From positions 1-39,863 of IMG/VR virus record IMGVR_UViG_2563366928_000005: a DNA stretch of 39,863 nucleotides; one strand, 5' to 3'. A program made the position numbers and the translations under genes. Under the pieces are notes generated by a model. That model saw nothing but the letters and a program-made list of their open reading frames with translations. It did no database searches and was not told where the DNA came from. Shown in pieces: positions 12,830 through 28,554 of the stretch. Source of the stretch: a virus. Its lineage: Duplodnaviria; Heunggongvirae; Uroviricota; Caudoviricetes. Every line of letters begins with the position of its first letter. The first letter of the stretch is position 1.

Positions 12830-13195
12830 ATGACTGAACGCATAGAATTTGTTTTGCCTTACCCGCCAACGGTGAACACTTACTGGCGACGTCGTGGCAG
12901 CACATATTTTGTATCAAAAGTCGGTGAGCGTTATCGCCGTGATGTGGCGCTTATTGTTCGCCAGCAGCAACTGAAATTAAACCTGTCCGGAAGGCCGGCA
13001 ATAGAAATTATTGCAGAGCCACCGGATAAGCGCCGTCGTGACCTGGACAATATCCTGAAGGCACCACTGGATGTACTGACGCATGCGGGGCTGCTCATAG
13101 ACGACGAGCAGTTTGATGAAATTAATATTGTGCGCGGTCAGCTTGTTCCTGGTGGGCGGTTGGGGATAAAAATCACAGAACTGGAGTACGCATGA
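12830..13195 (+). CDS. rusA: Holliday junction resolvase RusA
   Basis: 121 aa; DKRRRDLDNILKAPLDVLTHAGLLIDDEQ and GGRLGIKITELE closely parallel RusA. Confidence 0.85.
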   Translation: MTERIEFVLPYPPTVNTYWRRRGSTYFVSKVGERYRRDVALIVRQQQLKLNLSGRPAIEIIAEPPDKRRRDLDNILKAPLDVLTHAGLLIDDEQFDEINIVRGQLVPGGRLGIKITELEYA

Positions 13196-13881
13196 ATAAC
13201 CAGTATTTACAGTTTGTTCGTGAGCAACTCATGATTGCCACCGCCGATTTGAGTGGATCAACAAAAGGGCAGCTTGAGGCCTGGCAGGAGAATGCCATGT
13301 TTGATACAGGGCGTTACAGGCGTAAAAAAATCCGGTACCGCGATGAAGTGACTGGAAAAATGATAACGCGGGATAATCCACCAATCCCGGGAAAGCAATC
13401 GCTGGCGAAGGGGGTGTCAATTCCTCTCGTCAGTCCGGTTGAGTTTTCGACATCATCGTGGCGGCGGGCTGTTCTGTCTCTTGAAGAACATCATAAAGCC
13501 TGGTTGTTGTGGTGTTACAGCGGGAGTATTTGTTGGGAATATCAGATCGCGATAACGCAGTGGGTGTGGAATGAATTTAAAACCCGGTACGGCACCAGAA
13601 AAATTGCAGGGAAAACGCAGGAGCGCGTGAAGAAGTTGATCTGGCTGGCGGCACAGGATGTCAGAGGATGGATTACCGGGTGTGAGGTCTACCAGAGACA
13701 GGAGCTTGCCAGACTGTGTGGAGTTAAGCCTGATAACTGGAGCCATAATTATGCGAACTACTGGCGTGAGATGTGCGATATTTTTAAGAGTCTCGATAGA
13801 GAATCTGTGATTTGCACCGTGAAAATAAGAGCGCAACAAAAAGCGACTTTTTCACGACGAGATATTGCAAAAGTCAATTAA
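13192..13881 (+). CDS. Putative late antiterminator, Q-like (by position)
   Basis: 229 aa, overlaps the rusA stop (ATGA), last gene before a terminator; no lambda-Q zinc-finger motif seen. Confidence 0.4.
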   Translation: MNNQYLQFVREQLMIATADLSGSTKGQLEAWQENAMFDTGRYRRKKIRYRDEVTGKMITRDNPPIPGKQSLAKGVSIPLVSPVEFSTSSWRRAVLSLEEHHKAWLLWCYSGSICWEYQIAITQWVWNEFKTRYGTRKIAGKTQERVKKLIWLAAQDVRGWITGCEVYQRQELARLCGVKPDNWSHNYANYWREMCDIFKSLDRESVICTVKIRAQQKATFSRRDIAKVN

Positions 13882-13942
13882 ATAGCGTACGTTTCGTATA
13901 AATCTGATATTTTGCCGATTTTGTACGCGATGGCAAAGTAAG

Positions 13943-13973
13943 AAAAAAAACTGCCGTCAGGCGGTTTTTTTTT
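13943..13973. terminator. Rho-independent terminator, bidirectional in appearance
   Basis: A8 run, CTGCC-GTCA-GGCGG hairpin, T9 run. Confidence 0.6.
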
Positions 13974-14095
13974 ATGCCCAAAATCGCGTCAGTACAGTAA
14001 ACACGCTGGTGGTTGCGAATACGGGTCTTTCAGCTTGCTGGCTTTTTCGACAAGAGTTATTGGTATGTCACGTTAACCGGAAAAAGGAAAAAGAC

Positions 14096-14293
14096 ATGCT
14101 AAAACAGCAGGATATGACAGAAACCGCCAGAGTGGTGTTTAATGAATTAAGCGTTACCGAACCGGCGACAGTCGGGGAGATAGCGCAGAATACTTACCTT
14201 TCACGCGAACGCTGCCAGTTAATACTGACCCAGCTGGTTATGGCGGGTCTGGCAGACTATCAGTTCGGTTGTTACAGACGCCTTCAGTCCTGA
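14096..14293 (+). CDS. Small hypothetical protein, possible DNA-binding
   Basis: ATG at 14096 after AAGGAAAAAG; 65 aa; stop lies inside the terminator hairpin. Confidence 0.35.
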   Translation: MLKQQDMTETARVVFNELSVTEPATVGEIAQNTYLSRERCQLILTQLVMAGLADYQFGCYRRLQS

Positions 14294-14308
14294 AGGCTTT
14301 TTTATTTG
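14278..14308 (+). terminator. Rho-independent terminator
   Basis: GCCTTC-AGTCCT-GAAGGC hairpin followed by TTTTTTATTT. Confidence 0.55.
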
Positions 14309-14443
14309 TGGTAAATGGGCGGCTGGTGGGTGTTAGGGGCACCCACCAGCCATCTGCTCATGCGTTGGGTTCACAAGCAAACCTCAGGCCCACTGCTTTG
14401 CGCAAAAGCAGAATGAGCCTATCAGAGACAGGCTTAATGATCC

Positions 14444-15493
14444 ATGCTTAATACTGTAAAAATATCCAGTTGTGAGTTAATCAACGCCGACTGCCTGGAA
14501 TTTATCCGGTCGTTACCCGAAAATTCTGTTGACCTGATAGTCACGGACCCGCCGTACTTTAAAGTGAAGCCTGAGGGCTGGGATAACCAGTGGAAGGGCG
14601 ACGATGATTACCTGAAGTGGCTGGACCAGTGTCTGGCGCAGTTCTGGCGGGTGCTGAAACCTGTCGGAAGTCTTTACCTGTTCTGTGGTCATCGCCTGGC
14701 ATCTGATATCGAAATCATGATGCGTGAACGCTTCAGTGTGCTGAACCATATTATCTGGGCGAAGCCGTCCGGACGCTGGAACGGATGCAACAAGGAAAGC
14801 CTGCGGGCGTATTTCCCCGCCACAGAGCGCATTCTGTTCGCGGAACATTATCAGGGGCCGTATCGTCCGAAAGATGCCGGGTATGCGGCGAAGGGCAGTG
14901 CACTGAAACAGCATGTGATGGCCCCGCTGATTTCTTACTTTCGTGATGCGCGCGCTGCCCTGGGGATAACGGCAAAACAGATTGCAGATGCCACAGGAAA
15001 GAAAAACATGGTGTCGCACTGGTTCAGTGCCAGTCAGTGGCAGCTACCGAACGAAAGCGATTATCTGAAATTACAGTCGCTGTTTGCCCGGGTGGCAGAA
15101 GAGAAACATCAGCGCGGTGAACTGGAAAAGCCCCACCACCAGCTGGTGGATACGTATACGTCACTGAACCGGCAGTATGTGGAGCTGCAGAGTGAATATA
15201 AGCATCTGCGGCGGTATTTTGGTGTGACGGCGCAGGTGCCGTACACGGATGTGTGGACACATAAACCGGTGCAGTTCTATCCCGGGAAACATCCGTGCGA
15301 AAAACCGGCAGAAATGCTGCAGCAGATAATCAGCGCAAGCAGTCGTCCGGGTGACCTGGTTGCAGATTTTTTTATGGGCTCAGGTTCAACGGTAAAAGCG
15401 GCACTGGCGCTTGGGCGTCGTGCGATTGGCGTTGAACTGGAGACCGGACGTTTTGAGCAGACAGTCAGGGAAGTTCAGGATTTAATCGTTTGA
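14444..15493 (+). CDS. DNA methyltransferase, beta-class amino-MTase (N6-adenine or N4-cytosine)
   Basis: DPPY motif (LIVTDPPYF) near the N-terminus and FxGxG SAM-binding motif (DFFMGSGST) near the C-terminus; no adjacent endonuclease. Confidence 0.85.
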   Translation: MLNTVKISSCELINADCLEFIRSLPENSVDLIVTDPPYFKVKPEGWDNQWKGDDDYLKWLDQCLAQFWRVLKPVGSLYLFCGHRLASDIEIMMRERFSVLNHIIWAKPSGRWNGCNKESLRAYFPATERILFAEHYQGPYRPKDAGYAAKGSALKQHVMAPLISYFRDARAALGITAKQIADATGKKNMVSHWFSASQWQLPNESDYLKLQSLFARVAEEKHQRGELEKPHHQLVDTYTSLNRQYVELQSEYKHLRRYFGVTAQVPYTDVWTHKPVQFYPGKHPCEKPAEMLQQIISASSRPGDLVADFFMGSGSTVKAALALGRRAIGVELETGRFEQTVREVQDLIV

Positions 15494-15543
15494 AACGGAT
15501 GAGATTGCAGAATTAATTACGCACCATTATTATTCTGCTCCCG

Positions 15544-15618
15544 GCCCTTTAGCTCAGTGGTGAGAGCGAGCGACTCATAATCGCCAGGTCGCTGGTTCAA
15601 ATCCAGCAAGGGCCACCA
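15544..15618 (+). tRNA. tRNA with CAT anticodon, most similar to tRNA-Ile2 (lysidine type); Met not excluded
   Basis: Cloverleaf folded by hand: acceptor GGCCCTT/AAGGGCC, D-arm, anticodon loop CTCATAA, T-arm GCTGG-TTCAAAT-CCAGC, encoded CCA. Confidence 0.85.
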
Positions 15619-15625
15619 TCACATA

Positions 15626-15702
15626 CCGCCATTAGCTCATCAGGAAAGAGCGCCAGCTTTCGAAGCTGGTTGCGCGGAGTTCGGGTCCCCGAAGGCGGTC
15701 CA
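15626..15702 (+). tRNA. tRNA-Arg-like (anticodon TCG), imperfect stems; possibly degenerate
   Basis: Acceptor CCGCCAT/AAGGCGG has one A-A mismatch; anticodon stem CCAGC/GCTGG, loop TTTCGAA; T-stem has one mismatch and atypical loop TTCGGGT; CCA encoded. Confidence 0.5.
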
Positions 15703-15715
15703 TTATCTGTATCCT

Positions 15716-15792
15716 GCGTTGTTAGCTCAGCCGGACAGAGCAATTGCCTTCTAAGCAATCGGTCACTGGTTCGAATCCAGTACAACGCGCCA
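15716..15792 (+). tRNA. tRNA-Arg (anticodon TCT)
   Basis: Acceptor GCGTTGT/ACAACGC, anticodon stem-loop ATTGC-CTTCTAA-GCAAT, T-arm ACTGG-TTCGAAT-CCAGT, encoded CCA. Confidence 0.9.
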
Positions 15793-15835
15793 CACTTATT
15801 TTCCCTGGCTCGCTTTTGCGGGCTTTTTTTAAATG

Positions 15836-16052
15836 TCTCACAATTCAGGCGGTTGACTGTTGTCTGGTTTGCGGGGAGTTTGTTAAAAGAAACTGGCATG
15901 GTGAATCCCCCTGTGCGGAGGGGCAATCAGCGAGTAGGTATATGGGATAATCGCGGATTCAGGTGCTGGTACTGAATTCACCGGGAGGCACCCGGCACCA
16001 TGCAATGGCACATAGCGCCACTCTCCAGCCCCTCTCCGGAGGGGCTTTTCTG
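15836..16052 (+). repeat. Promoter/terminator-like module, copy 1
   Basis: Blocks shared with copy 2: CTCACAATTCAG + TTGACT (15853..15858), TTTGTTAAAA, GCATGGTGAATCCCCCTG-GCGGAGGGGC hairpin, CACCGGGAGGCACCCGGCACCATG, terminator-like CCCCTCTCCGGAGGGGCTTTT (16029..16049). Confidence 0.6.
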
Positions 16053-16240
16053 TGCCGGATACATCACAGTTTCTGGAACCTTAGGTACTACAGTATCAGT
16101 CAGGGTGCTATATTTTCAGATGTGATGAAAGCCTGTCAGCAGGCAGGGCGTATCGGAAATGACCCAGTAGAGAAAACGTTGACTCAGATACCGGTGCTGA
16201 GTTACCGGGAAACCGGCATCACATGACCGCTATCCTTCCA

Positions 16241-16267
16241 GGCCCATCCGCTCCGGTGGGCCTTTTT
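16241..16267 (+). terminator. Rho-independent terminator after two short ORFs
   Basis: GGCCCA-10 nt loop-TGGGCC followed by TTTTT. Confidence 0.55.
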
Positions 16268-16304
16268 ACTGCAGAAAACAGGTTCCCCGTTAAATGCTAT
16301 GTTG

Positions 16305-16540
16305 CTCACAATTCAGTAAGTTGACAGTTGCCTGTCAGACTGGGCATTTGTTAAAAAAATTTCGCATGGTGAATCCCCCTGAGCGGAGGGGCGACTGGTG
16401 ACGGTATAATCTCTGATTATCAAAACGAGAATGACGCGGGTTTAGTGGCACCGGGCTGAACTCACCGGGAGGCACCCGGCACCATGTGCATGATGATACA
16501 GATACGCGGCTTTAGCCCCTCTCCGGAGGGGCTTTCTTAT
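16305..16540 (+). repeat. Promoter/terminator-like module, copy 2
   Basis: Same five blocks as copy 1; consensus TTGACA at 16321..16326 and TATAAT at 16405..16410 (too far apart to pair); terminator-like hairpin at 16516..16538. Confidence 0.6.
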
Positions 16541-16766
16541 GGACAAAAAAAGCCCGCGCTGGGAGACGCGGGCGGCAAGGAATAAACAATAAAACGTGAA
16601 GTAATATTTCAGCTGGCGAATAATACCCCATAGTAATCACTCTGCGCAACTGCGCGGTCTTTTTCGAATTGCGGGCTGTAGTCTCCCTTCTGCCATTGTC
16701 CTGTAACTTCCGGACTTCAGCCTGCTCCTTATCTGACTCACAACATTATCCCGCCCGGGAGGATTC

Positions 16767-18620
16767 ATGGCATTTAAACACTATGACGTGGTCAGGGCGG
16801 CATCGCCGTCAGACCTTGCGAAACGACTGACACAAAAACTGAAGGAGGGCTGGCAGCCGTTTGGTAGTCCGGTGGCCATAACCCCTTATACCCTGATGCA
16901 GGCGATTGCAGCAGAAGGTGATGTGGTCGTCAGTGGTGCAACTGAGCCGGAGTGGTACTACGTCATCGTACTGGCCGGGCAGTCCAATGCCATGGCTTAC
17001 GGTGAAGGGCTTCCGCTTCCGGATTCATACGATGCGCCCCATCCGCGCATTAAGCAACTGGCCCGTCGTAACACAGTGACTCCCGGTGGTGAAGTATGCG
17101 TATTTAACGACATCATTCCTGCTGACCATTGTCTGCATGATGTTCAGGATATGAGTACGATTAACCATCCCCGGGCTGACCTGAGCAAAGGGCAGTACGG
17201 CTGTGTCGGACAGGGCTTACATATTGCCAAAAAACTGCTTCCGTATATCCCTAATAATGCGGGGATCCTGCTGGTACCATGCTGTCGTGGTGGTTCGGCA
17301 TTCACCCAGGGCACGGAGGGGACATTCAGCGAGTCCACGGGAGCCAGTCAGGATTCGGCTCGCTGGGGAGTGGGTAAGCCGTTATATCAGGATCTGCTTT
17401 TCCGCACGAAGGCAGCATTGCAGAAAAACCCGAAAAACGTTTTGCTGGCGATATGCTGGATGCAGGGGGAATTCGATATGACGAATGCCAGTTACGCCCA
17501 GCAGCCAGCAGCATTTCTTGCAATGGTACAGCAGTTCCGTGCTGACCTTGCCGGGCTGGCGGCGCAGTGTCACGGTGGAAGTCCGGCATCAGTCCCCTGG
17601 ATTTGTGGCGACACGACATACGCGTGGAAACAAGAACACGGTACGCAATATGAAGTGGTATATGGTGCATATAAAGGTAAAGAATCCCAGCAGATTTATT
17701 TTGTTCCCTTTATGACCGATGGTAGCGGAGTTAATACACCGACAAACAACCCGTCAGAAGATCCTGATATTGCCGGGTCTGGTTATTACGGTTCGGCATC
17801 CCGAACGAACAAAAACTGGGTATCATCAAATCGCCCGACGCATTTCAGCTCATGGGCGCGTCGTGGCATTATTCCCGATCGTATGGCAACTGCTATTCTG
17901 AACGTAGCCGGTCGCACCTTAGCCTTCATTAGTGGTAAGGCACCGGAAATCAAACCCTCGCCCGGCGGCGACACGCCATCGGGGCCGTCTGAAGATGCAT
18001 CCATACGCACAATCTCCCTGTTGCCGACAGCCGGAGACGCTGCTGCGCAGGGCTGGAGCATTAAGAATGGCGGAATTCAGTTGTCAGATGGTGTATTTAA
18101 GATCACCAAGCAGAGCAATAAAGCCTGGTCCCTGACGCGCCCGGTGGATGACGCAGTCTCCCTGCTGACACGGGGTGGCAGACTGAGCTGTAAGTTTCGA
18201 CTGTCAGGCGCACTGACCAACAACCAGTTCGGTCTGGGAATTTATCTGTATACCGATGTAGCGTTACCTGACGTCGTGGCGATGACCGGGACTGGTAACC
18301 CGTTCCTGATGTCGTTCTTCACCCAGACCACAGACGGCAAACTGAATCTGATGCATCACAAGAAAGCAGGAAACACAAAGTTGGGCGAGTTCGGGAATTA
18401 CAGTAACGACTGGCAGACGCTGGAGCTGGTGTTCACCGCCGGCAGTGCCACGGTTACTCCGAAACTGAATGGAGTGGCTGGCCCGGCATTCCAGGTCATA
18501 AAAGACAGTCTGACACTGGGGCTGAATGCGCTGACGCTGACGGATATTACCAAAAATGCAGCGTATGGCGTTGAGATAGAAAGTCTGGTGCTGGAGATAA
18601 ATGCACCGGCATCATCATAA
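16767..18620 (+). CDS. NanS-p-like sialate O-acetylesterase (N-terminal DUF1737-like region plus SASA/DUF303 domain)
   Basis: 617 aa; GQSN block (IVLAGQSNAMAYGEG) typical of SASA esterases; GGGAGGA RBS; sits where Stx phages carry nanS-p. Confidence 0.75.
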   Translation: MAFKHYDVVRAASPSDLAKRLTQKLKEGWQPFGSPVAITPYTLMQAIAAEGDVVVSGATEPEWYYVIVLAGQSNAMAYGEGLPLPDSYDAPHPRIKQLARRNTVTPGGEVCVFNDIIPADHCLHDVQDMSTINHPRADLSKGQYGCVGQGLHIAKKLLPYIPNNAGILLVPCCRGGSAFTQGTEGTFSESTGASQDSARWGVGKPLYQDLLFRTKAALQKNPKNVLLAICWMQGEFDMTNASYAQQPAAFLAMVQQFRADLAGLAAQCHGGSPASVPWICGDTTYAWKQEHGTQYEVVYGAYKGKESQQIYFVPFMTDGSGVNTPTNNPSEDPDIAGSGYYGSASRTNKNWVSSNRPTHFSSWARRGIIPDRMATAILNVAGRTLAFISGKAPEIKPSPGGDTPSGPSEDASIRTISLLPTAGDAAAQGWSIKNGGIQLSDGVFKITKQSNKAWSLTRPVDDAVSLLTRGGRLSCKFRLSGALTNNQFGLGIYLYTDVALPDVVAMTGTGNPFLMSFFTQTTDGKLNLMHHKKAGNTKLGEFGNYSNDWQTLELVFTAGSATVTPKLNGVAGPAFQVIKDSLTLGLNALTLTDITKNAAYGVEIESLVLEINAPASS

Positions 18621-18705
18621 AAAGTGAGCCAGCCAAATGGAAGGTATCGTTAAACTCACCGGTAGTGTCAGTGGGTCGTCTGAGATGCCTGCATGAGTTA
18701 TCAGA

Positions 18706-18736
18706 GCCATCAGTACTTAACTGGTGGCTTTTTTTA
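18706..18736 (+). terminator. Putative rho-independent terminator between esterase and holin
   Basis: GCCATCAG-TACTTAA-CTGGTGGC (one mismatch) followed by TTTTTTT. Confidence 0.45.
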
Positions 18737-18770
18737 TTGTTGTCAGCTTCCGGATAACGGGAGACGGGGT

Positions 18771-18986
18771 ATGTACCAGATGGAAAAAATCACAACAGGT
18801 GTGTCATACACCACGTCAGCGGTGGGAACGGGCTACTGGTTCCTGCAGTTGCTGGACAGGGTTTCCCCGTCTCAGTGGGCGGCAATAGGCGTGCTGGGGA
18901 GTCTGCTGTTTGGGCTGCTGACATATCTGACTAACCTGTATTTCAAAATCAGAGAGGACCGTCGTAAGGCGGCGCGGGGAGAGTAA
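18771..18986 (+). CDS. S: Pinholin, phage 21 S-type, with dual-start motif
   Basis: MYQMEKI dual start then [51 protein letters not shown], matching S21 as I recall it; GGGAGACGGGG RBS. Confidence 0.85.
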
Positions 18987-18990
18987 AGCG

Positions 18991-19881
18991 ATGAAGAAAA
19001 AATACGAACTGGTTGTTAAAGGGATAAATAATTACCCGGATAAGATTACTGTTACTGTGGCACTGGAAGTTGGTGGGTATCCGTCACTGTTGTTGCCAGA
19101 TGTGGCGATTAGTCTTGACCGTACTGAAGGTGCCACGCTGGAGTTTTACGAAGCTGAGGCGAAAAAGCAGGCGAAGCAGTTTTTCATGGATGTTGCTGCC
19201 GGGTTATGTGAAGGGGATGAGCAGTCGCCGGAAAAGCGCCCCGTAATTTTAGAGGCGCAGGATGTGTTGATAACCTACAAAGGAAAGCTACCGGGAAGAA
19301 TTACTTGTTCTCTGAAGATGCCGCCGTCAACACTGCGGTCAGAAAAAGATGATGTTGAATCACGTATTGAAAAACTGGAGAGCTACGTCGTTGAGCTGAA
19401 TAAGAAATGGTCGATATTGGTGCCTTCTGACGATGAAAAGCAGTTTGCTGCGTTTGACGATTATTGTCGGAAAGTGATGAGCAGAAATCTCGCAGAGTGT
19501 TTCAGTATTCATAATGATAATTTCAGTGAGCTGGAATGGGAGTGTAACCGGCCATCCTTTGTTGTATCCGGTGATGCTGGGAAAATAACCATCTCAGAAA
19601 ATGGGAAAGTAACACCTCCATCGCACCAGCACAGTGAGGAGCTCATTGAATTTGCCATTGATTACCTGAAGAACAATAAAAAGCAGGGGCTGATGAAGCG
19701 CGTTGGCCGTTGCATGGGATATCTTCAGGTAGCCGCTGAGATTGAAGCGCTGGCCAGTGGTGCTGATAAGGATGCAATTGTGCGGGAGGCTCTTCTTCGT
19801 GATTTTAATACTCCACCCTTTAAAAAAGTGCCGGCTTACTGGCTTCATCCGGGGCTGACTTATCTTAAAGTGCGTATTTAG
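18991..19881 (+). CDS. Hypothetical protein inserted between holin and endolysin
   Basis: 296 aa, no transmembrane segment or recognised motif; GGGGAGAG RBS; 4-nt gap from the holin stop. Confidence 0.6.
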   Translation: MKKKYELVVKGINNYPDKITVTVALEVGGYPSLLLPDVAISLDRTEGATLEFYEAEAKKQAKQFFMDVAAGLCEGDEQSPEKRPVILEAQDVLITYKGKLPGRITCSLKMPPSTLRSEKDDVESRIEKLESYVVELNKKWSILVPSDDEKQFAAFDDYCRKVMSRNLAECFSIHNDNFSELEWECNRPSFVVSGDAGKITISENGKVTPPSHQHSEELIEFAIDYLKNNKKQGLMKRVGRCMGYLQVAAEIEALASGADKDAIVREALLRDFNTPPFKKVPAYWLHPGLTYLKVRI

Positions 19882-19917
19882 TGGGCCAGGGACAGCGGCT
19901 GAATATTTAATATATCC

Positions 19918-20451
19918 ATGAACACCAAAATCAAATACGGCCTGTCGGCTGCCGTTCTGGCGCTGATTGCCGCTGGTGCGCCTGCGCCTGACATTCTCGA
20001 CCAGTTTCTGGATGAAAAGGAAGGTAACCACACCACGGCATACCGTGATGGTGCGGGTATCTGGACCATCTGCCGCGGTGCCATCCTGGTGGATGGCAAA
20101 CCTGTCGTTCCGGGCATGAAGTTGTCGAAGGAAAAATGCGACCGGGTTAACGCCATTGAGCGTGATAAGGCGCTGGCATGGGTGGAGAAAAACATCAGAG
20201 TGCCATTGAGTGAACCCCAGAAAGCGGGGATCGCGTCATTCTGTCCGTACAACATTGGTCCCGGTAAGTGTTTCCCGTCGACGTTTTATAAACGAATTAA
20301 TGCAGGTGATCGCAGGGGAGCGTGTGAGGCGATTCGCTGGTGGATTAAGGACGGTGGCAGAGACTGCCGTATTCGTTCAAACAACTGCTACGGTCAGGTA
20401 TCCCGTCGTGACCAGGAGAGCGCGCTGGCGTGCTGGGGTATCGACAGATAA
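19918..20451 (+). CDS. R: SAR endolysin (GH24 lysozyme with N-terminal signal-anchor-release domain)
   Basis: N-terminal Gly/Ala-rich weak TM segment YGLSAAVLALIAAGAPAP followed by E...D...T catalytic pattern (EGNHTTAYRDGAGIWTICRG). Confidence 0.9.
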   Translation: MNTKIKYGLSAAVLALIAAGAPAPDILDQFLDEKEGNHTTAYRDGAGIWTICRGAILVDGKPVVPGMKLSKEKCDRVNAIERDKALAWVEKNIRVPLSEPQKAGIASFCPYNIGPGKCFPSTFYKRINAGDRRGACEAIRWWIKDGGRDCRIRSNNCYGQVSRRDQESALACWGIDR

Positions 20452-20545
20452 GCAGAATATTTTGCTGAAAAATAAGGTATGGCCACGCGGGCGGATAACA
20501 CGAAATCCTGCGAACTGGCGAAACGTAAGTGAATAAAAGTAAAAA

Positions 20546-20580
20546 CCCCGTTTGTTGGCACCAAGCGGGGTTTTGTGTTT
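20546..20580 (+). terminator. Putative terminator between endolysin and spanin genes
   Basis: CCCCGTTTG-TTGGCAC-CAAGCGGGG hairpin followed by TTTTGTGTTT. Confidence 0.5.
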
Positions 20581-20610
20581 CCTGACTCCGGAAAAGTCAA
20601 AGGAGAAAGT

Positions 20611-20748
20611 GTGTTTGATTTTAGCAAACTGATTCGGGAGATTCGAGTGATGGCTGAAAAATTATCCACCTGGAAGTTCATTCTTATCTGGCTGGTGTTT
20701 GTGATTATGGCCTCCGGTTATTTCATCGGTCAGATACGCTGGTGGTGA
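20611..20748 (+). CDS. Small single-pass membrane peptide coupled to Rz
   Basis: GTG start 5 nt after AAAGGAGAAAG; 45 aa with hydrophobic core [18 protein letters not shown]; stop 1 nt before the Rz ATG; not in the ORF track. Confidence 0.35.
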
Positions 20749-20749
20749 A

Positions 20750-21217
20750 ATGAACCGCGTACTGTGCGTGGTCATCATTGCCCTGCTGGTGGCCTGTGGT
20801 GCGCTTAGTCTGGGGCTGAATCATTACCGTGATAACGCCATTACCTACAAAGCCCAGCGCGACAAAAATGTCAGAGAACTGAAGCTGGCGAACGCGGCAA
20901 TTACTGACATGCAGATGCGTCAGCGTGATGTTGCTGCGCTCGATGCAAAATACACGAAGGAGTTAGCTGATGCGAAAGCTGAAAATGAAACTCTTCGCGC
21001 TGACGTTGCCGCTGGTCGTAAGCGCCTGCGTATCAACGCCACCTGTCCAGGTCCCGTGCGTGAAGCCACCGGCACCGCCCGCGTGGATAATGCAACCGGC
21101 CCCCAACTGGCAGACACCGTTACACGGGATTATTTCACCCTCAGAGAGCGGCTGATGACGATGCAGAAGCAACTGGAAGGGGCGCAGGAATATATCCGTA
21201 CTCAGTGCCTGAAATAA
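20750..21217 (+). CDS. Rz: i-spanin Rz
   Basis: 155 aa; DNA and protein closely match lambda Rz as I recall it ([17 protein letters not shown]...). Confidence 0.9.
20970..21155 (+). CDS. Rz1: o-spanin Rz1 (embedded in Rz, +1 frame)
   Basis: 61 aa, lipoprotein signal with lipobox LVVSAC and Pro-rich mature region, fully nested in Rz. Confidence 0.8.
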
Positions 21218-22429: not shown

Positions 22430-22939
22430 GTGGCTACGCAGACTGAAGTTGCCAGGCATTTAAGTCTGACCGATCGCCAGCTTCGCAGATTGCAGAAATT
22501 GCCGGGTGCCCCGATATCGAATAAGCGAGGGCAACTGGATCTGGATGCCTGGCGCGATTTTTACATATCGTATCTGAGAAGAAGTAAAAACGATGTGCCT
22601 GATGGCGATAGCGAAGACGACTATGAGGAGAAATTGCTTATTGCCAGATGGGAACTGACAGCAGAACAGGCTGTTACACAGCAGTTAAAAAATGAGGTGT
22701 CAAAAGGAAAACTTATTGACACCGGGTTCTGTATTTTTGCCCTCAGCAAGCTGGCAATGGCGTTATCCAGTACGCTTGATTCCATCCCTTTATCCATGCA
22801 GCGACAGTTTCCTGATTTAACACCGCGCCATCTTGACCATCTGAAAACCCTTATTGCAAAGGGCGCAAATCAGTGTGCGCGGGCGGGGGATAAATTACCG
22901 GATTTACTCGATGAATATATCAGAGCAACAACTGAATAA
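22430..22939 (+). CDS. nu1: Terminase small subunit, Nu1-like
   Basis: GTG start after AGGTGAGGAG; C-terminal half parallels lambda Nu1; overlaps the large subunit start as in lambda. Confidence 0.8.
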   Translation: MATQTEVARHLSLTDRQLRRLQKLPGAPISNKRGQLDLDAWRDFYISYLRRSKNDVPDGDSEDDYEEKLLIARWELTAEQAVTQQLKNEVSKGKLIDTGFCIFALSKLAMALSSTLDSIPLSMQRQFPDLTPRHLDHLKTLIAKGANQCARAGDKLPDLLDEYIRATTE

Positions 22940-24839
22940 TATGATGAGTGCTGTCACAACAGCATTACAGCCCCTGATAAGGGCATTGCCGGTGACGCCA
23001 GTTGAATGGGCTGATCAAAATTATTATCTGCCTAAAGAATCTTCATATGGTGAGGGAGAATGGAAAACGCTGCCGTTCCAGATCGCCATCATGAACAGCA
23101 TGGGGAATGATCAGATCCGGACTGTTAATCTGATTAAATCTGCCCGTGTTGGCTATACAAAGATGTTGCTGGGAGTCGCCGGGTATTTTATTGAGCATAA
23201 ATCCCGAAACAGTCTGCTTTTTCAGCCCACGGATTCTGCCGCTGAAGATTTTATGAAGTCTCACGTGGAGGCGACGATTCGCGATGTTCCCTGCCTGAAA
23301 AAACTTTCTCCCTGGCTGGGACGTAAACATCGTGATAATACCATCACGCTGAAACGCTTTTCATCGGGTGTGGGCTTCTGGTGCCTGGGCGGCGCTGCCG
23401 CCAAAAACTACCGTGAAAAATCCGTGGACGTGGTCTGCTATGACGAACTTTCCTCGTTCGAGCCGGATGTCGAAAAAGAGGGCTCGCCAACCCTGCTGGG
23501 GGATAAGCGTATTGAGGGCTCGGTATGGCCAAAATCCATTCGCGGCTCGACGCCTAAAATAAAAGGCTCCTGCCAGATCGAAAAAGCGGCCAACGAGTCG
23601 GCGCATTTCATGCGTTTTTATGTGCCCTGCCCGCACTGTGGGGAGGCGCAGTATCTGAAATTTGGCGATGAGTCCACGCCTTTTGGCCTTAAATGGGAGA
23701 AGGACAGCCCCGAAAGCGTTTTCTACCTCTGTGAACATCATGGCTGCGTGATCCATCAGTCTGAGCTTGACCAGAGCAACGGGCGGTGGATCTGTGAAAA
23801 CACGGGGATGTGGACCCGCGACGGTCTGACGTTTTTCAGCGCCGCGGATAATGAAATTCCGCCGCCGCGCTCCATCACATTCCATATCTGGACGGCGTAC
23901 AGTCCGTTCACCACCTGGGTACAGATTGTCTATGACTGGCTGGATGCACTGAAAGATCCCAACGGCCTGAAAACCTTTGTGAACACCACGCTGGGCGAGA
24001 CCTGGGAAGAGGCCGTGGGCGAAAAACTCGATCACCAGGTACTGATGGATAAGGTCGTGCATTACACGGCGGCGGTGCCTGCCCGGGTGGTTTATCTGAC
24101 GGCGGGCATTGACTCGCAGCGAAACCGTTTTGAGATGTATGTCTGGGGATGGGCACCGGGAGAGGAAGCTTTTCTGGTGGATAAAATCATCATTATGGGG
24201 CGTCCTGATGAGGAAGAGACGCTGTTACGTGTGGATGCGGCGATCAACAAAAAATACCGCCATGCGGATGGCACCGAAATGACCATTTCCCGTGTCTGCT
24301 GGGACACCGGGGGGATCGATGGCGAAATTGTCTATCAGAGGTCAAAAAAACACGGTGTTTTCCGGGTGCTGCCGGTAAAAGGTGCATCTGTTTATGGCAA
24401 GCCGGTGATCACCATGCCAAAAACCCGCAATCAGCGGGGCGTGTATCTGTGCGAAGTGGGGACGGACACCGCAAAAGAAATTCTCTATGCCCGTATGAAA
24501 GCCGATCCCACGCCTGCGGATGAAGCCACGTCGTATGCCATCCGTTTTCCTGATGATCCGGAGATTTTTTCGCAGACAGAGGCGCAGCAACTGGTGGCGG
24601 AAGAGCTTGTGGAGAAGTGGGAAAAAGGAAAGATGCGTCTGCTGTGGGATAACAAAAAGCGGCGTAACGAAGCGCTGGACTGCCTGGTGTATGCCTACGC
24701 GGCATTACGTGTGTCCGTGCAACGCTGGCAGCTTGATCTGGCTGTACTGGCAAAATCCCGGGAAGAAGAGACGACCCGGCCAACCCTTAAAGAACTGGCA
24801 GCGAAGCTGTCCGGAGGAGTGAATGGTTACAGTCGCTGA
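22911..24839 (+). CDS. A: Terminase large subunit, gpA-like
   Basis: From MNISEQQLNN; long stretches match lambda gpA as I recall it (VEWADQNYYLPKES, KSIRGSTPK, FHIWTAYSPFTTWVQIV). Confidence 0.95.
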   Translation: MNISEQQLNNMMSAVTTALQPLIRALPVTPVEWADQNYYLPKESSYGEGEWKTLPFQIAIMNSMGNDQIRTVNLIKSARVGYTKMLLGVAGYFIEHKSRNSLLFQPTDSAAEDFMKSHVEATIRDVPCLKKLSPWLGRKHRDNTITLKRFSSGVGFWCLGGAAAKNYREKSVDVVCYDELSSFEPDVEKEGSPTLLGDKRIEGSVWPKSIRGSTPKIKGSCQIEKAANESAHFMRFYVPCPHCGEAQYLKFGDESTPFGLKWEKDSPESVFYLCEHHGCVIHQSELDQSNGRWICENTGMWTRDGLTFFSAADNEIPPPRSITFHIWTAYSPFTTWVQIVYDWLDALKDPNGLKTFVNTTLGETWEEAVGEKLDHQVLMDKVVHYTAAVPARVVYLTAGIDSQRNRFEMYVWGWAPGEEAFLVDKIIIMGRPDEEETLLRVDAAINKKYRHADGTEMTISRVCWDTGGIDGEIVYQRSKKHGVFRVLPVKGASVYGKPVITMPKTRNQRGVYLCEVGTDTAKEILYARMKADPTPADEATSYAIRFPDDPEIFSQTEAQQLVAEELVEKWEKGKMRLLWDNKKRRNEALDCLVYAYAALRVSVQRWQLDLAVLAKSREEETTRPTLKELAAKLSGGVNGYSR

Positions 24840-25029
24840 ACTGCAGGCGCTGCGTCAGGCGCGCCTTGATTTATTAACCGGTAAACGGGTGGTGTCTGTC
24901 CAGAAAGATGGTCGCAGAATTGAATATACGGCAGCTTCTCTGGATGAGCTTAACCGGGCGATCAATGATGCGGAGTCGGTACTGGGGACAACCCGCCGTC
25001 GCCGTCGTCCGCTGGGAGTGAGGTTATGA
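24823..25029 (+). CDS. W: Head-tail joining protein, gpW-like
   Basis: 68 aa; LTGKRVVSVQKDGRRIEYTAASL resembles lambda gpW. Confidence 0.85.
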   Translation: MVTVAELQALRQARLDLLTGKRVVSVQKDGRRIEYTAASLDELNRAINDAESVLGTTRRRRRPLGVRL

Positions 25030-26618
25030 AACGAACGCCTGTCCTGATTGATGTGAACGGCGTTCCGCTTCGGGAGAGCCTCAGCTACAACGGTGGCGGT
25101 GCAGGATTTGGCGGGCAAATGGCAGAGTGGTTGCCACCCTCGCAGAGTGCCGATGCGGCCCTGCTGCCCGCGTTGCGTCTGGGGAATGCCCGTGCAGATG
25201 ATCTGGTGCGCAATAACGGAATAGCGGCCAATGCGGTGGCCCTGCATAAGGATCACATTGTCGGGCATATGTTTCTGATCAGCTACCGTCCGAACTGGCG
25301 CTGGCTGGGGATGCGGGAGACCGCGGCAAAAAGTTTTGTCGATGAGGTGGAGGCGGCCTGGTCAGAATACGCAGAAGGGATGTTTGGTGAGATCGACGTG
25401 GAAGGGAAACGCACGTTTACGGAATTTATCCGTGAAGGTGTGGGCGTTCATGCGTTTAACGGCGAAATCTTTGTGCAGCCGGTCTGGGATACGGAGAGCA
25501 CGCAACTGTTTCGTACGCGTTTTAAAGCCGTGAGTCCGAAACGGGTGGACACGCCAGGACACGGTATCGGGAACCGTTTTCTGCGGGCCGGTGTGGAGGT
25601 TGATCGATATGGCCGTGCCGTTGCGTACCATATCTGTGAGGATGATTTTCCTCGCTCCGGGAGTGGACGATGGGAACGGATCCCGCGTGAACTTCCCACC
25701 GGGCGTCCGGCCATGCTGCATATTTTCGAGCCGGTGGAGGACGGGCAGACCCGTGGAGCCAATCAGTTTTACAGCGTTATGGAACGGCTGAAGATGCTGG
25801 ATTCCCTGCAGGCAACACAGCTTCAGTCGGCCATAGTGAAGGCGATGTATGCAGCGACGATTGAAAGTGACCTTGATACCGAAAAGGCCTTTGAATATAT
25901 CGCCGGTGCGCCGCAGGGGCAGAAGGATAATCCGCTTATTAATATTCTGGATAAGTTCTCCACCTGGTATGACACGAATAGCGTGGCGCTGGGCGGTGTC
26001 AAAATTCCGCACCTTTTCCCCGGTGATGATCTGAAACTTCAGACCGCGCAGGATTCAGACAATGGATTTTCGGCGCTTGAACAGGCGCTGCTGCGGTATA
26101 TCGCCGCCGGTCTTGGCGTTTCCTACGAACAGTTGTCCCGTGATTACTCGAAGGTCAGTTATTCAAGTGCCCGCGCATCCGCCAATGAGTCGTGGCGCTA
26201 TTTTATGGGGCGGCGAAAATTTATTGCGTCCCGACTGGCCACGCAGATGTTTTCCTGCTGGCTGGAAGAGGCACTTCTTCGGGGGATTATTCGTCCGCCA
26301 CGGGCACGTTTTGATTTTTATCAGGCGCGATCAGCCTGGTCACGGGCTGAGTGGATTGGAGCCGGAAGAATGGCCATTGACGGGCTCAAGGAGGTTCAGG
26401 AATCAGTGATGCGCATTGAGGCCGGACTGAGCACGTATGAGAAAGAGCTGGCGCTGATGGGCGAGGATTATCAGGACATTTTCCGCCAGCAGGTCAGGGA
26501 ATCTGCAGAGCGGGAAAAAGCCGGACTCTCACGTCCGGTGTGGATAGCGCAGGCGTATCAGCAGCAGATAGCGGAGAGTCGCAGGCCGGAAGAGGAGACA
26601 ACACCACGTGAGACGTAA
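25026..26618 (+). CDS. B: Portal protein, gpB-like
   Basis: 530 aa in the lambda B position between W and C. Confidence 0.9.
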   Translation: MKRTPVLIDVNGVPLRESLSYNGGGAGFGGQMAEWLPPSQSADAALLPALRLGNARADDLVRNNGIAANAVALHKDHIVGHMFLISYRPNWRWLGMRETAAKSFVDEVEAAWSEYAEGMFGEIDVEGKRTFTEFIREGVGVHAFNGEIFVQPVWDTESTQLFRTRFKAVSPKRVDTPGHGIGNRFLRAGVEVDRYGRAVAYHICEDDFPRSGSGRWERIPRELPTGRPAMLHIFEPVEDGQTRGANQFYSVMERLKMLDSLQATQLQSAIVKAMYAATIESDLDTEKAFEYIAGAPQGQKDNPLINILDKFSTWYDTNSVALGGVKIPHLFPGDDLKLQTAQDSDNGFSALEQALLRYIAAGLGVSYEQLSRDYSKVSYSSARASANESWRYFMGRRKFIASRLATQMFSCWLEEALLRGIIRPPRARFDFYQARSAWSRAEWIGAGRMAIDGLKEVQESVMRIEAGLSTYEKELALMGEDYQDIFRQQVRESAEREKAGLSRPVWIAQAYQQQIAESRRPEEETTPRET

Positions 26619-28113
26619 TCTTTCACACATTATTGCAGCAGCATTCAATGAACCGCTGCTTCTGGAGCCCGCCTATGCGCGGGTTTTCTTTTGCGCGCTC
26701 GGGCGCGAGATGGGGGCAGCAAGTCTTTCGGTACCGCAACAGCAGGTACAGCTTGATGCTCCCGGGATGCTGGCTGAAACGGACGAGTACATGGCCGGAG
26801 GTAAACGACCGGCCCGTGTTTACCGGGTGGTGAACGGTATTGCGGTACTGCCGGTGACCGGCACGCTGGTGCACCGGCTGGGGGGGATGCGGCCATTTTC
26901 CGGAATGACTGGCTATGACGGCATTGTCGCCTGTCTTCAGCAGGCAATGGCAGATAGCCAGGTGCGGGGCATACTGCTGGACATTGACAGTCCGGGCGGG
27001 CAGGCCGCCGGCGCGTTTGACTGCGCTGACATGATTTACCGCCTCCGGCAGCAGAAGCCGGTCTGGGCACTGTGTAATGACACGGCCTGTTCTGCAGCCA
27101 TGCTGCTGGCGTCGGCCTGCTCCCGACGGCTGGTTACCCAGACATCCCGTATCGGCTCCATTGGCGTGATGATGAGCCATGTCAGCTATGCCGGTCATCT
27201 GGCGCAGGCCGGTGTGGATATCACGCTGATTTACTCAGGGGCGCACAAGGTGGATGGCAATCAGTTTGAAGCGTTGCCGGAAGAGATTCGCCAGGACATG
27301 CAGCAGCGGATTGATGCGGCGCGCCGGATGTTTGCCGAAAAAGTGGCGATGTATACCGGTCTGTCTGTTGATGCCGTCACGGGAACAGAGGCCGCCGTTT
27401 TTGAAGGTCAGTCCGGCATTGAGGCCGGGCTGGCGGATGAATTAATCAATGCGTCGGATGCCATCAGCGTGATGGCTGCGGCGCTGAACACACATGATAC
27501 AGGAGGCACTATGCCGCAATTAACTGCAACGGAAGCCGCCGTGCAGGAGAACCAGCGAGTGATGGGGATCCTGACGTGTCAGGAAGCGAAAGGACGTGAA
27601 CACCTTGCCACGATGCTGGCAGGACAACAGGGCATGAGCGTTGAACAGGCCCGGGCGATTCTGACCGCGGCAGCACCACAGCAGCCGGTGGCATCCACGC
27701 AGAGTGAAGCCGATCGCATTATGGCGTGTGAAGAGGCTAAAGGTCGTGAACAACTGGCGGCAACGCTGGCGGCGATGCCGGAGATGACGGTGGAAAAAGC
27801 CCGCCCGATCCTTGCGGCTGCACCACTGGCGGATGCCGGACCCTCACTCCGTGATCAGATTATGGCTCTGGATGAGGCAAAAGGGGCTGAGGCGCAGGCT
27901 GAAAAACTGGCGGCGTTTCCCGGAATGACGGTGGAGGCTGCCCGCGACATTCTGTCCTCATCGCCGGATAAAGCAGAACCGGTCTCTGCATCCACAACCG
28001 CCCTGTTTGAACATTTCATGGCGAATCATTCACCGGCAGCGGTGCGGGGTGGCGTGTCACAGACGTCAGCAGACGGTGATGCGGACGTGAAAATGCTCAT
28101 GGCCATGCCATGA
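26608..28113 (+). CDS. C: Prohead protease / minor capsid protein, gpC-like, with C-terminal scaffold-like repeats
   Basis: 501 aa; N-terminal ClpP/S49-like protease region; C-terminal three tandem roughly 50-aa repeats (EAKGRE...MTVE.AR.IL). Confidence 0.85.
   Translation: MRRNLSHIIAAAFNEPLLLEPAYARVFFCALGREMGAASLSVPQQQVQLDAPGMLAETDEYMAGGKRPARVYRVVNGIAVLPVTGTLVHRLGGMRPFSGMTGYDGIVACLQQAMADSQVRGILLDIDSPGGQAAGAFDCADMIYRLRQQKPVWALCNDTACSAAMLLASACSRRLVTQTSRIGSIGVMMSHVSYAGHLAQAGVDITLIYSGAHKVDGNQFEALPEEIRQDMQQRIDAARRMFAEKVAMYTGLSVDAVTGTEAAVFEGQSGIEAGLADELINASDAISVMAAALNTHDTGGTMPQLTATEAAVQENQRVMGILTCQEAKGREHLATMLAGQQGMSVEQARAILTAAAPQQPVASTQSEADRIMACEEAKGREQLAATLAAMPEMTVEKARPILAAAPLADAGPSLRDQIMALDEAKGAEAQAEKLAAFPGMTVEAARDILSSSPDKAEPVSASTTALFEHFMANHSPAAVRGGVSQTSADGDADVKMLMAMP
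27511..28113 (+). CDS. nu3: Nested in-frame scaffold protein, Nu3-like (internal start within C)
   Basis: In-frame ATG at 27511 preceded by ACAGGAGG RBS, located where lambda Nu3 initiates inside C. Confidence 0.45.
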   Translation: MPQLTATEAAVQENQRVMGILTCQEAKGREHLATMLAGQQGMSVEQARAILTAAAPQQPVASTQSEADRIMACEEAKGREQLAATLAAMPEMTVEKARPILAAAPLADAGPSLRDQIMALDEAKGAEAQAEKLAAFPGMTVEAARDILSSSPDKAEPVSASTTALFEHFMANHSPAAVRGGVSQTSADGDADVKMLMAMP

Positions 28114-28149
28114 AGTCAGTGCTGACCATCAATATGAGGTTTTTACAAT

Positions 28150-28497
28150 ATGGTAACGAAAACCATCACTGAACAGCGTGCGGAAGTACGTATTTTTGCC
28201 GGTAATGATCCGGCTCACACCGCCACAGGCAGCAGCGGGATTTCCTCGGCAACACCGGCACTGACACCCCTGATGCTGGATGGGGCCACCGGGAAACTGG
28301 TGGTCTGGGACGGACAGAAAGCCGGTAGTGCGGTTGGCATACTGGTACTGCCGCTTGAAGGCACAGAGGCGGTGCTGACGTATTACAAGTCGGGGACCTT
28401 TGCGACGGAGGCAATCCGCTGGCCTGAAAGTGTGGATGAACACAAAAAGGCCAACGCCTTTACCGGCAGTGCCCTGAGTCACGCGGCGCTGCCGTAA
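28150..28497 (+). CDS. D: Head decoration protein, gpD-like
   Basis: 115 aa; NDPAHTATG, TPLMLD, VVWDGQ and YYKSGTF parallel lambda gpD. Confidence 0.9.
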   Translation: MVTKTITEQRAEVRIFAGNDPAHTATGSSGISSATPALTPLMLDGATGKLVVWDGQKAGSAVGILVLPLEGTEAVLTYYKSGTFATEAIRWPESVDEHKKANAFTGSALSHAALP

Positions 28498-28554
28498 CAC
28501 GTTATCAGGCCACCGCGTTGGCCTGACTGATTTCTTAATAAAAGGAACTGATTT

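Follow-up and report, generated by a model that had tools for sequence, protein, structure and literature searches.

The window, that is, the whole stretch of 39,863 nucleotides analysed here, carries on its plus strand a 617-aa open reading frame at 16767..18620, exactly where the original prediction had placed it. The frame begins with ATG, is preceded by a strong Shine-Dalgarno sequence (GGGAGGA) 6 nt upstream, and corresponds to RefSeq WP_000874516.1, "SASA family carbohydrate esterase". Judged from its sequence, it is an intact three-domain NanS-p-type sialate O-acetylesterase (gene nanS-p), with DUF1737, SGNH/SASA and DUF6645 in this order. The N-terminus lacks a hydrophobic stretch (the highest Kyte-Doolittle mean over 12 aa is 1.2), and no signal peptide was found by this measure of N-terminal hydrophobicity.

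The domain search that had been proposed as a check of the original prediction recovered DUF1737, SASA and DUF6645, and each of the three Pfam matches exceeds the curated cut-offs. The DUF1737 domain, which had been suspected in the N-terminal region, covers residues 3–50 (16773..16916, plus strand; PF08410, E 1.3e-15), and loop typing identifies it as the loop-A variant (...PVAITPYTLMQ...), which carries Tyr41. It is followed by an SGNH type II/SASA catalytic domain at residues 59–379 (16941..17903, plus strand), defined by homology to E. coli NanS (PDB 3PT5; 58% identity over 318 aa, E 4.5e-122). Within it, the Pfam SASA profile PF03629 matches residues 66–262 (E 1.4e-12), in support of the proposed GQSN signature of SASA/DUF303 esterases. 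The reference blocks of 3PT5 are GQSNA, RGGSAF, MQGEFD and R-x-SHFS (PMC10792757), and the catalytic residues of NanS are Ser19, His301 and Gln18 (PMC9063846). All four blocks are kept in the window protein, at 71–75 (GQSNA, with Gln72 and Ser73), 174–179 (RGGSAF), 232–237 (MQGEFD) and 356–361 (RPTHFS, with His359), so that it has both the Ser-His dyad and the Gln/Gly oxyanion hole; the codons of Ser73 and His359 lie at 16983–16985 and 17841–17843. These blocks are invariant across the four nanS-p alleles compared.

The C-terminal ~200 residues had been regarded as an uncharacterised extra domain, a view that does not hold. Residues 467–577 match Pfam DUF6645 (PF20350, E 2e-19), and residues 421–613 (18027..18605, plus strand) are homologous to the lectin-like jelly-roll domain crystallised from phi24B NanS-p (PDB 6YP6; 36% identity over 205 aa, E 4.3e-30), from which the fold is taken as known. 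On present literature, the NanS-p jelly-roll is proposed to be a putative carbohydrate-binding module (PMC8065619, PMC10462455).

nanS-p lies between an antiterminator gene and a holin gene on the same strand, the location expected of a NanS-p gene, and the order is Q, methylase, three tRNAs, STnc100 sRNAs, nanS-p, holin and endolysin. The lambda-family Q gene (13192..13881, plus strand; PF06323, E 1.4e-83) is followed by a candidate pR'/tR' unit (13898..13975, plus strand), which was read from the sequence together with a terminator scan and comprises a candidate late -10 element, TATAAA, at 13898–13903 and the first intrinsic terminator hairpin at 13951–13965 with its T-run; the consensus promoter scan gave no late-promoter call above threshold. 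An N6/N4 DNA methyltransferase gene (14444..15493, plus strand; PF01555, E 2.7e-44) is collinear with the methylase gene of the Stx2a phage Stx2_95. Three tRNA genes found by ARAGORN (15543..15792, plus strand) have the anticodons CAT, TCG (Arg) and TCT (Arg), the first being assigned to Met by ARAGORN and to Ile by RefSeq; in the alignment they are collinear with the trio 5' of stx2A in Stx2_95, and a terminator at 15807–15824 follows them. Terminator-like sites are enriched over 13000–19200 (19 observed against 5.6 ± 2.6 expected), and seven or eight such hairpins precede nanS-p. Downstream of the gene, a strong intrinsic terminator with a 12-bp stem and a T-run (18703..18731, plus strand) closes a structured intergenic element (fold z-score -2.8); the element, 18621–18740, gave no Rfam match.

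In the alignment with Stx2_95, stxAB fills exactly the interval 15836..16304 (plus strand), hereafter the stx slot. In the window this slot holds a full-length STnc100-type sRNA unit at 15867–16057, with its own terminator at 16027–16046, and a degenerate STnc100-like relic at 16096–16269, with a terminator at 16240–16263. A second full-length unit, at 16335..16544 (plus strand), is also conserved 5' of nanS-p in Stx2_95, in keeping with published work in which STnc100/PasD precedes the esterase gene (bioRxiv 10.64898/2026.05.13.724894). Against the RF02076 gathering score of 47 bits, the two full-length units pass with 136 and 165 bits, respectively, whereas the relic stays below threshold with 30 bits (E 9e-4). 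An 88-nt direct repeat occurs at 15837 and 16305. Searches with StxA and StxB (tblastn) and with stxAB DNA (blastn) returned chance-level matches only (E 0.4–10), none of them inside 15793–16766, and a leftover stx fragment in this interval was rejected as it is wholly accounted for by STnc100-type units. The stxA/stxB operon that defines an Stx-converting phage is thus not found between the tRNAs and nanS-p. The earlier statements that the tRNAs are present without toxin genes, and that in Stx phages the esterase gene lies 3' of stxAB (a few hundred bp after stxB in Stx2_95 and phi24B), are both borne out.

The host of nanS-p is a complete-looking lambda-type prophage without Shiga toxin genes. 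The lysis cassette (18771..21217, plus strand), identified through Pfam and the RefSeq annotation of a near-identical APEC O18 prophage, consists of a P21-type holin (18771–18986), a DUF1327 protein (18991–19881), a lysozyme or endolysin (19918–20451) and an Rz-type spanin (20750–21217), all on the plus strand. The packaging and head module (22430..29583, plus strand; PF05876/PF20454, PF05136, PF02924 and PF03864, with the ORF map) encodes TerS, a gpA-type TerL, a lambda-family portal, a protease, a gpD-like decoration protein (28150–28497, plus strand) and a gpE-type major capsid protein (28555–29583, plus strand). The description "Stx-phage-like" is therefore apt for the late regulatory segment but not for the head and tail genes, which are of lambda type rather than of phi24B/933W type.

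APEC O18 and other non-STEC genomes carry the region 15500–18700 with 100% identity, CE10 with 99.9% and 042 with 99.8%, and RefSeq annotates the APEC O18-type copies as SASA family esterase. At least 1000 contigs encode the identical 617-aa protein, and a related gene occurs in 44% of complete E. coli genomes. The closest relatives tied to tested strains, the tie being at strain level, lie in O157:H7 genomes (only ~86% DNA identity). Multiple NanS-p copies in non-Stx lambdoid prophages were seen in O157:H7 and O104:H4 genomes. Other genomes carry internal-deletion pseudogene copies on the same backbone, and these decayed copies show that prophage maintenance does not depend on nanS-p. The gene, its three domains and its position 3' of the stx slot have all been described in the literature, as have the STnc100/Pas-type sRNAs that flank it and the fact that it occurs, and is active, in non-Stx prophages. 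Since this is a known enzyme in a toxin-free lambda-like prophage that is unchanged in many E. coli strains, the finding is correct but ordinary.

What would such an enzyme do for the prophage and its host? NanS-p alleles of EDL933 and O104:H4, from Stx as well as non-Stx prophages, have esterase activity, support growth on Neu5,9Ac2 and remove O-acetyl groups from mucin glycans; NanS-p expression goes up on induction (PMC8065619, PMC10462455). From these other alleles, the window allele is predicted to act on Neu5,9Ac2 and mucin. We consider it highly probable, for the explanation as a whole, that the locus is a NanS-p gene of an stx-free lambda-type prophage whose product is expressed late under Q, released by lysis, and removes O-acetyl groups from sialic acids. 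By the example of published close relatives, nanS-p would be silent or weakly expressed in the lysogen; upon induction, Q-modified RNA polymerase would leave the late promoter, pass the terminators of the tRNA and STnc100 genes and reach nanS-p, and the protein would build up in the cytoplasm and exit at phage lysis, possibly with a part of it docked on capsids via DUF1737. Outside the cell, NanS-p would strip O-acetyl groups from mucin sialic acids while its C-terminal domain probably holds it on glycans, and the de-acetylated Neu5Ac could then be used by surviving sibling lysogens.

Several other readings of the gene have to be weighed against this one. That nanS-p is an inactive relic could be imagined from the internal-deletion pseudogenes on the same backbone in other genomes; the copy in the window, however, is uninterrupted and of full length, all its catalytic motifs are intact and the identical protein is widely recorded, so the pseudogene reading was rejected and we give it a very small probability. 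Could the esterase instead target O-acetylated glycans on the bacterial surface, for instance O-antigen or K1 polysialic acid, and aid phage adsorption or release rather than act on host mucins? Such a role has been raised as a possibility in a review (PMC8065619), and identical or near-identical copies do occur in K1-type extraintestinal strains, e.g. CE10 (O7:K1) and APEC O18. Yet the same allele is also found in many strains without K1, and the characterised NanS-p alleles work on free Neu5,9Ac2 and mucin O-glycans (PMC8065619), which makes the surface-glycan role quite improbable. The word "retained" in the original prediction implied a former Stx phage from which stxAB was deleted, leaving nanS-p as a relic of a toxigenic ancestor. 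It is true that the late region is collinear with Stx2a phages at ~90–93% identity, from 13947 through the methylase and tRNAs and again over 440 bp 5' of nanS-p, and repeated stx loss is one possibility that has been raised for chromosomal esterase loci (Pas-sRNA preprint, bioRxiv 10.64898/2026.05.13.724894). The loss of stx that the word implies is nevertheless unsupported. No stx remnant was found at the protein or DNA level, and the slot is filled by the full-length STnc100 unit with its terminator and by the degenerate unit, with no deletion scar. Its junctions fall at the tRNA terminator and where the STnc100 repeat unit starts, a pattern that speaks for cassette exchange, and in PPyecE_EH1910, another stx-negative prophage, the same slot holds a toxin-antitoxin pair and a TerB-like gene. 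Moreover, stx lies upstream in 0 of 59 loci of the loop A/S1/C1 allele class as against 22 of 42 loci of the S2 catalytic-domain class, and identity to the Stx-phage alleles reaches only 70% in the catalytic and 36% in the C-terminal domain. Descent from a toxigenic phage by loss of stx is therefore improbable, and the lack of stx is best understood as a different cargo in a variable cassette slot rather than as the decay of an Stx phage. Of modest value is the observation that this slot, with the tRNA terminator on one side and the STnc100 repeat on the other, acts as an exchangeable cassette.

The DUF1737 domain was compared with the head genes in an exploratory analysis of 49 dereplicated loci. 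Three loop types were found, each of which keeps a loop tyrosine (Tyr41 in the window), and loop type tracks head-module type: loop A occurs with lambda heads at 26 loci, with H3 heads at 8 and with H4 heads at 1, loop B with phi24B heads at 7 and with H3 heads at 1, and loop C with H4 heads at 6, these loci coming from two samples of redundant isolate prophages, both of them seeded. A strict pairing of each loop type with one terminase type, as in a first cross-tabulation (36:0, 0:7), was discarded when two more head types and two exceptions were found. Along the protein, the association with head type is highest at residues 16–54 (AMI 0.59–0.65) and is at most 0.31 across the catalytic and C-terminal domains, despite their being nearer to the head genes; the bootstrap difference in AMI is 0.28 (95% interval 0.15–0.41), in statistics that ignore kinship. 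At these 49 loci, no other part of the protein is as good a predictor of capsid-gene type as the variable DUF1737 loop.

This association fits the claim, made in a 2026 preprint, that DUF1737 docks on capsids. In that work, phi24B virions contain gp84 (NanS-p), whose residues 2–57 (DUF1737) form a hexamer that sits as a plug in the facet-centre hexons, anchored by Tyr42, and docking of this kind is reported for phi24B gp84 alone (bioRxiv 10.64898/2026.04.10.717836). One may then ask whether NanS-p primarily serves the phage, being displayed on hexons through DUF1737 so that virions would bind or cut O-acetylated sialo-mucus for receptor destruction or mucus adherence, with lysogen nutrition as a by-product. 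This role is compatible with the explanation preferred above, from which it differs chiefly in emphasis. The tracking of head type by loop type and the conserved loop tyrosine are in its favour; however, the docking evidence comes from a single preprint, not peer-reviewed, whose subject is a T=9 podovirus, and the head genes of the window phage are of lambda type (gpE/gpD). According to Caspar-Klug geometry, a T=7 capsid has no hexon on the icosahedral threefold axis. If the capsid of the window phage is T=7 like that of lambda, it would be devoid of the threefold-axis hexon, the sole site occupied in phi24B. A PDB search found no phi24B capsid chain. The window allele also has neither of the two SSP motifs proposed as autoprocessing sites in the linkers, loop A is found with three different capsid families, and the co-variation has its exceptions and sampling. 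A primary role in the virion is thus possible but unlikely. Somewhat more tentatively still, NanS-p could be a modular capsid-display enzyme, in which the DUF1737 loop is swapped or co-adapted to the capsid family while the esterase and lectin body recombines freely between these settings; loop A may then go with lambda gpE- and HK97-type heads, loop B with phi24B-type heads and loop C with ClpP-Phage_capsid_4-type heads. If so, the capsid to which the window enzyme docks would be a gpD-decorated one, presumably T=7, and, in the absence of the threefold-axis hexon of phi24B, binding site and copy number would have to differ. The link between loop type and capsid type is a cheap, testable lead on why phages carry NanS-p.

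Compared with NanS-p of 933W (z1466/L0105) and phi24B (vb_24B_21, i.e. gp84), the window protein has the same three-domain order and catalytic blocks, and its gene takes the same place between Q/tRNAs and holin with an STnc100-type sRNA directly 5'. The identity is 56% overall, being 65% in the N-terminal, 70% in the catalytic and 36% in the C-terminal domain. Because of this last low value against the crystallised domain, the C1-type lectin-like domain may differ from it in glycan specificity. Unlike 933W/phi24B NanS-p with its loop B, the window protein has a DUF1737 loop shorter by 3 residues and a first linker shorter by 14, and has no SSP motifs, which lie at residues 57 and 414 in phi24B. 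stxAB is upstream of the gene in 933W/phi24B and absent in the window, and the heads are of P22-portal/Phage_capsid_3 podovirus type and lambda type, respectively. A closer counterpart is yjhS of the non-Stx, stx-negative prophage PPyecE_EH1910, which belongs to the same loop A/S1/C1 class and likewise encodes 617 aa (86% protein identity), with a toxin-antitoxin pair and a TerB-like gene as upstream cargo in place of the tRNAs and extra STnc100 of the window. Influenza C/coronavirus HE and T4 Hoc, a comparison drawn in the phi24B preprint (bioRxiv 10.64898/2026.04.10.717836), are similar by analogy only, as virion-displayed enzymes or lectins that handle O-acetylated sialic acids or mucus. 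Chromosomal NanS (YjhS, PDB 3PT5) shares with the window protein the SGNH type II fold, a Ser-His dyad without Asp and the Gln/Gly oxyanion hole; it is, however, a single-domain member of the nan regulon, whereas DUF1737 and the jelly-roll are additional in the window protein, whose gene is predicted to be under phage late control.

The nanS-p ORF (16767..18620, + strand) encodes 617 residues from an ATG start, as the original prediction had it, with the Shine-Dalgarno sequence GGGAGGA located 6 nt upstream. The domain search proposed there as a check recovered SASA (residues 66–262, E 1.4e-12) and also DUF1737 (residues 3–50, E 1.3e-15) and DUF6645 (residues 467–577, E 2e-19), all exceeding the curated Pfam cut-offs. 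In a search of solved structures, residues 59–379 match E. coli NanS/YjhS (3PT5, E 4.5e-122; 58% identity over 318 residues) and residues 421–613 match 6YP6, a chain named NanS-p (E 4.3e-30). The latter homology, together with DUF6645, makes the description of the C-terminal region as an extra domain of unknown role outdated; in the Stx phage phi24B, the C-terminal domain of NanS-p has been crystallised as a lectin-like jelly-roll and proposed to bind carbohydrate (PMC8065619, PMC10462455). The full-length protein falls in phrog_143, a PHROGs family without annotation, and a search of NCBIfam returned no model for it.

In 3PT5, the active site is formed by the blocks GQSNA (nucleophile Ser19, oxyanion Gln18), RGGSAF, MQGEFD and R-x-SHFS (His301), and the usual Asp is missing from NanS (PMC10792757, PMC9063846). 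The window allele has GQSNA at 71–75, RGGSAF at 174–179, MQGEFD at 232–237 and RPTHFS at 356–361, and the key active-site residues are unchanged in all four aligned alleles. The interpretation as a NanS-p-type esterase is right in substance, with domains, catalytic blocks and late-region context all in agreement. No hydrophobic stretch was found at the N-terminus and hence no secretion signal, so the protein would have to leave the cell through lysis or with the virion. A 2026 preprint reports gp84 (NanS-p) in virions of phi24B, with hexamers of its DUF1737 (residues 2–57) anchored by Tyr42 in the facet-centre hexons of the T=9 capsid, and proposes cleavage of gp84 at SSP motifs (bioRxiv 10.64898/2026.04.10.717836).

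The window is a lambda-type prophage beginning at the integrase gene, and the APEC O18 prophage adjoining ompW is 97–99% identical to it across most of its length. Pfam identifies a lambda-family Q (13192–13881), an N6/N4 DNA methylase in the late region, a P21-type holin and a lysozyme with a DUF1327 protein between them, a gpA-type terminase with a lambda-family portal, and a gpD-like decoration protein with a gpE-type major capsid protein. The tRNA genes mentioned in the original prediction are present, three in number, at 15543–15792. Seven or eight terminator-like hairpins lie on the same strand between Q and nanS-p, and a count over the whole region gives 19 terminator-like sites where 5.6 ± 2.6 would be expected. 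This hairpin-rich interval fits a gene that would be read mainly by Q-modified polymerase; a candidate late promoter (TATAAA) is located at 13898 and a terminator at 13951–13975.

Directly 3′ of Q, Rfam places STnc370 on the minus strand at 13938–14014, below threshold (39 bits, gathering score 54, E 0.005); this match overlaps the terminator region of the candidate late promoter. The tRNA at 15543–15618 (anticodon CAT) is tRNA-Met according to ARAGORN and tRNA-Ile (AUA decoder) according to RefSeq and the phi24B record; with two tRNA-Arg (TCG, TCT) it makes the same trio as upstream of stx in the Stx2a phage Stx2_95, and phi24B has a related Ile-Arg-Ser trio at the corresponding position. A tRNA-modification enzyme, a QueH-type epoxyqueuosine reductase (10253–10939, annotation transferred from the near-identical APEC O18), is encoded in this phage, which itself has three tRNA genes. 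In the early region, Rfam also finds a DicF sRNA near dicB (4461–4512, minus strand, 77 bits) and a hok/sok-type antitoxin RNA (11007–11182, plus strand, 121 bits), adjoining hokD in the APEC O18 annotation.

Between holin and lysozyme, the 296-aa ORF at 18991–19881 is covered by DUF1327 over its first 100 residues only, the remaining ~200 having no Pfam match; this position is held by a short YdfR-family gene in APEC O18 and by a 329-aa hypothetical protein in Stx2_95. From the esterase stop to the holin start (18621–18740) lies a structured intergenic element (fold z-score −2.8) ending in a 12-bp-stem terminator. Rfam gave no match for this element, which occupies the position downstream of the esterase gene where PasA/PasC are placed (bioRxiv 10.64898/2026.05.13.724894). 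The portal gene (25026–26618) is an intact 530-aa ORF, unlike that of its close relative in APEC O18, which is annotated as frameshifted, so the window prophage may still be able to form particles.

In the alignment of the window with Stx2_95, collinearity sets in immediately behind Q and runs past the methylase and the three tRNAs up to the tRNA terminator. The two then part exactly at stx2AB and meet again at CACAATTCAG, some 460 bp ahead of nanS-p; the window's stx slot, the interval holding stxAB in Stx2 phages, spans 15836–16304 and opens with this motif, which forms a direct repeat of 88 nt (80% identity) at 15837 and 16305. The whole tRNA-to-nanS-p interval thus consists of serial STnc100-type units that each end in a terminator of their own, since Rfam (gathering score 47) matches two full-length STnc100 sRNAs (15867–16057, 136 bits; 16335–16544, 165 bits) and, below threshold, a third, degenerate copy (16096–16269, 30 bits). 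The first copy is closer to the single one of the stx-negative phage PPyecE_EH1910 than to its neighbour in the window, which suggests that the array was built by recombination rather than by recent tandem duplication. A 2026 preprint already locates STnc100/PasD on the upstream side of the esterase gene and reports stx next to fewer than 3% of the chromosomal PasA loci (bioRxiv 10.64898/2026.05.13.724894). PPyecE_EH1910 presents a third state of the slot, with a toxin-antitoxin pair and a TerB-like gene.

The claimed absence of toxin genes held, as StxA/StxB protein and stxAB DNA queries gave only chance-level matches in the window and none inside the slot. The loss of stx that the original prediction implied is unsupported: no remnant is present and the slot holds sRNA units. 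A set of 160 IMG/VR loci was collected with the window and phi24B alleles as seeds. In the window's own allele class (loop A, catalytic cluster S1, C-terminal cluster C1), stx lies upstream in 0 of the 59 loci whose upstream sequence extends for 2.5 kb or more, and alleles with the S2 catalytic body have it in 22 of 42. The missing stx remnant, the intact sRNA units and the junctions at repeat boundaries together favour a lineage whose slot would simply hold other cargo. An ancient loss is less likely.

The DUF1737 loop has three types (A, B and C) across window 16767–16930 and the collected prophage loci, each keeping a tyrosine. Four head-module types were defined by Pfam: lambda (gpA terminase, lambda-family portal, gpD, gpE), phi24B (P22-like portal, Phage_capsid_3), H3 (HK97-type protease-capsid fusion) and H4 (ClpP-Phage_capsid_4 fusion). 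Dereplication left 49 protein-plus-head combinations (A-lambda 26, A-H3 8, A-H4 1, B-24B 7, B-H3 1, C-H4 6), with two exceptions to the pairing and loop A found with three capsid families. Any of the loops A, B and C can precede one and the same S2/C2 enzyme body, and the head type goes with the loop. In a sliding-window scan, association with head type is highest at residues 16–54 (AMI 0.65 and 0.59), 0.40 in the linker and at most 0.31 across the catalytic and C-terminal domains. Bootstrapping puts the difference at 0.28 (95% interval 0.15–0.41), to be read with substantial caveats, the sample being two seeded sets of redundant isolate prophages and the statistics ignoring phylogeny. In this exploratory analysis, loop type is a better predictor of the downstream capsid-gene family than any other part of NanS-p. 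Simple linkage predicts the opposite gradient, because no other part of the gene lies as far from the head genes as the N-terminus. The association agrees with the proposed docking on capsids and would carry it over to other capsid families. A T=7 capsid has no hexon on the threefold axis. In phi24B, the hexon on that axis is the only docking site (bioRxiv 10.64898/2026.04.10.717836). Docking on a lambda-type capsid, if T=7, would thus need a different site, or may not occur.

Neither the nanS-p gene described here nor its context is new, and published work covers the original observation and most of its interpretation. Esterase activity has been established for NanS-p alleles of both Stx and non-Stx prophages in EDL933 and O104:H4; these alleles permit growth on Neu5,9Ac2 and remove O-acetyl groups from mucin glycans, and z1466 is one of the late genes with the strongest induction (PMC8065619, PMC10462455). 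Of 5426 complete E. coli genomes, 2393 match the gene query, 1392 of them near full length; 450 records are at least 99% identical, and some genomes have up to 13 copies. The exact protein is found on at least 1000 contigs under the name 'MULTISPECIES: SASA family carbohydrate esterase'. APEC O18 and other human isolates match window 15500–18700 with 100% identity, CE10 and 042 with 99.8–99.9%. Many genomes have the same methylase-tRNA-holin backbone with nanS-p cut down by an internal ~1.5-kb deletion; a ~347-bp pseudogene in E. coli SF-173 (locus L166, 2501–2847) retains the DUF1737 start and the 3′ end only.

The closest phage allele is that of PPyecE_EH1910, with 86% identity to the window protein. 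phi24B NanS-p has an overall identity of 56% to the window protein; by region, the figures are 65% for the 55 N-terminal residues, 70% for the catalytic domain and 36% for the C-terminal one. The window's DUF1737 loop, PVAITPYTLMQ, is three residues shorter than ALISTAGYGAEFIQ of phi24B with the tyrosine kept, the first linker is 14 residues shorter, and the window protein has neither of the two SSP motifs of phi24B NanS-p.
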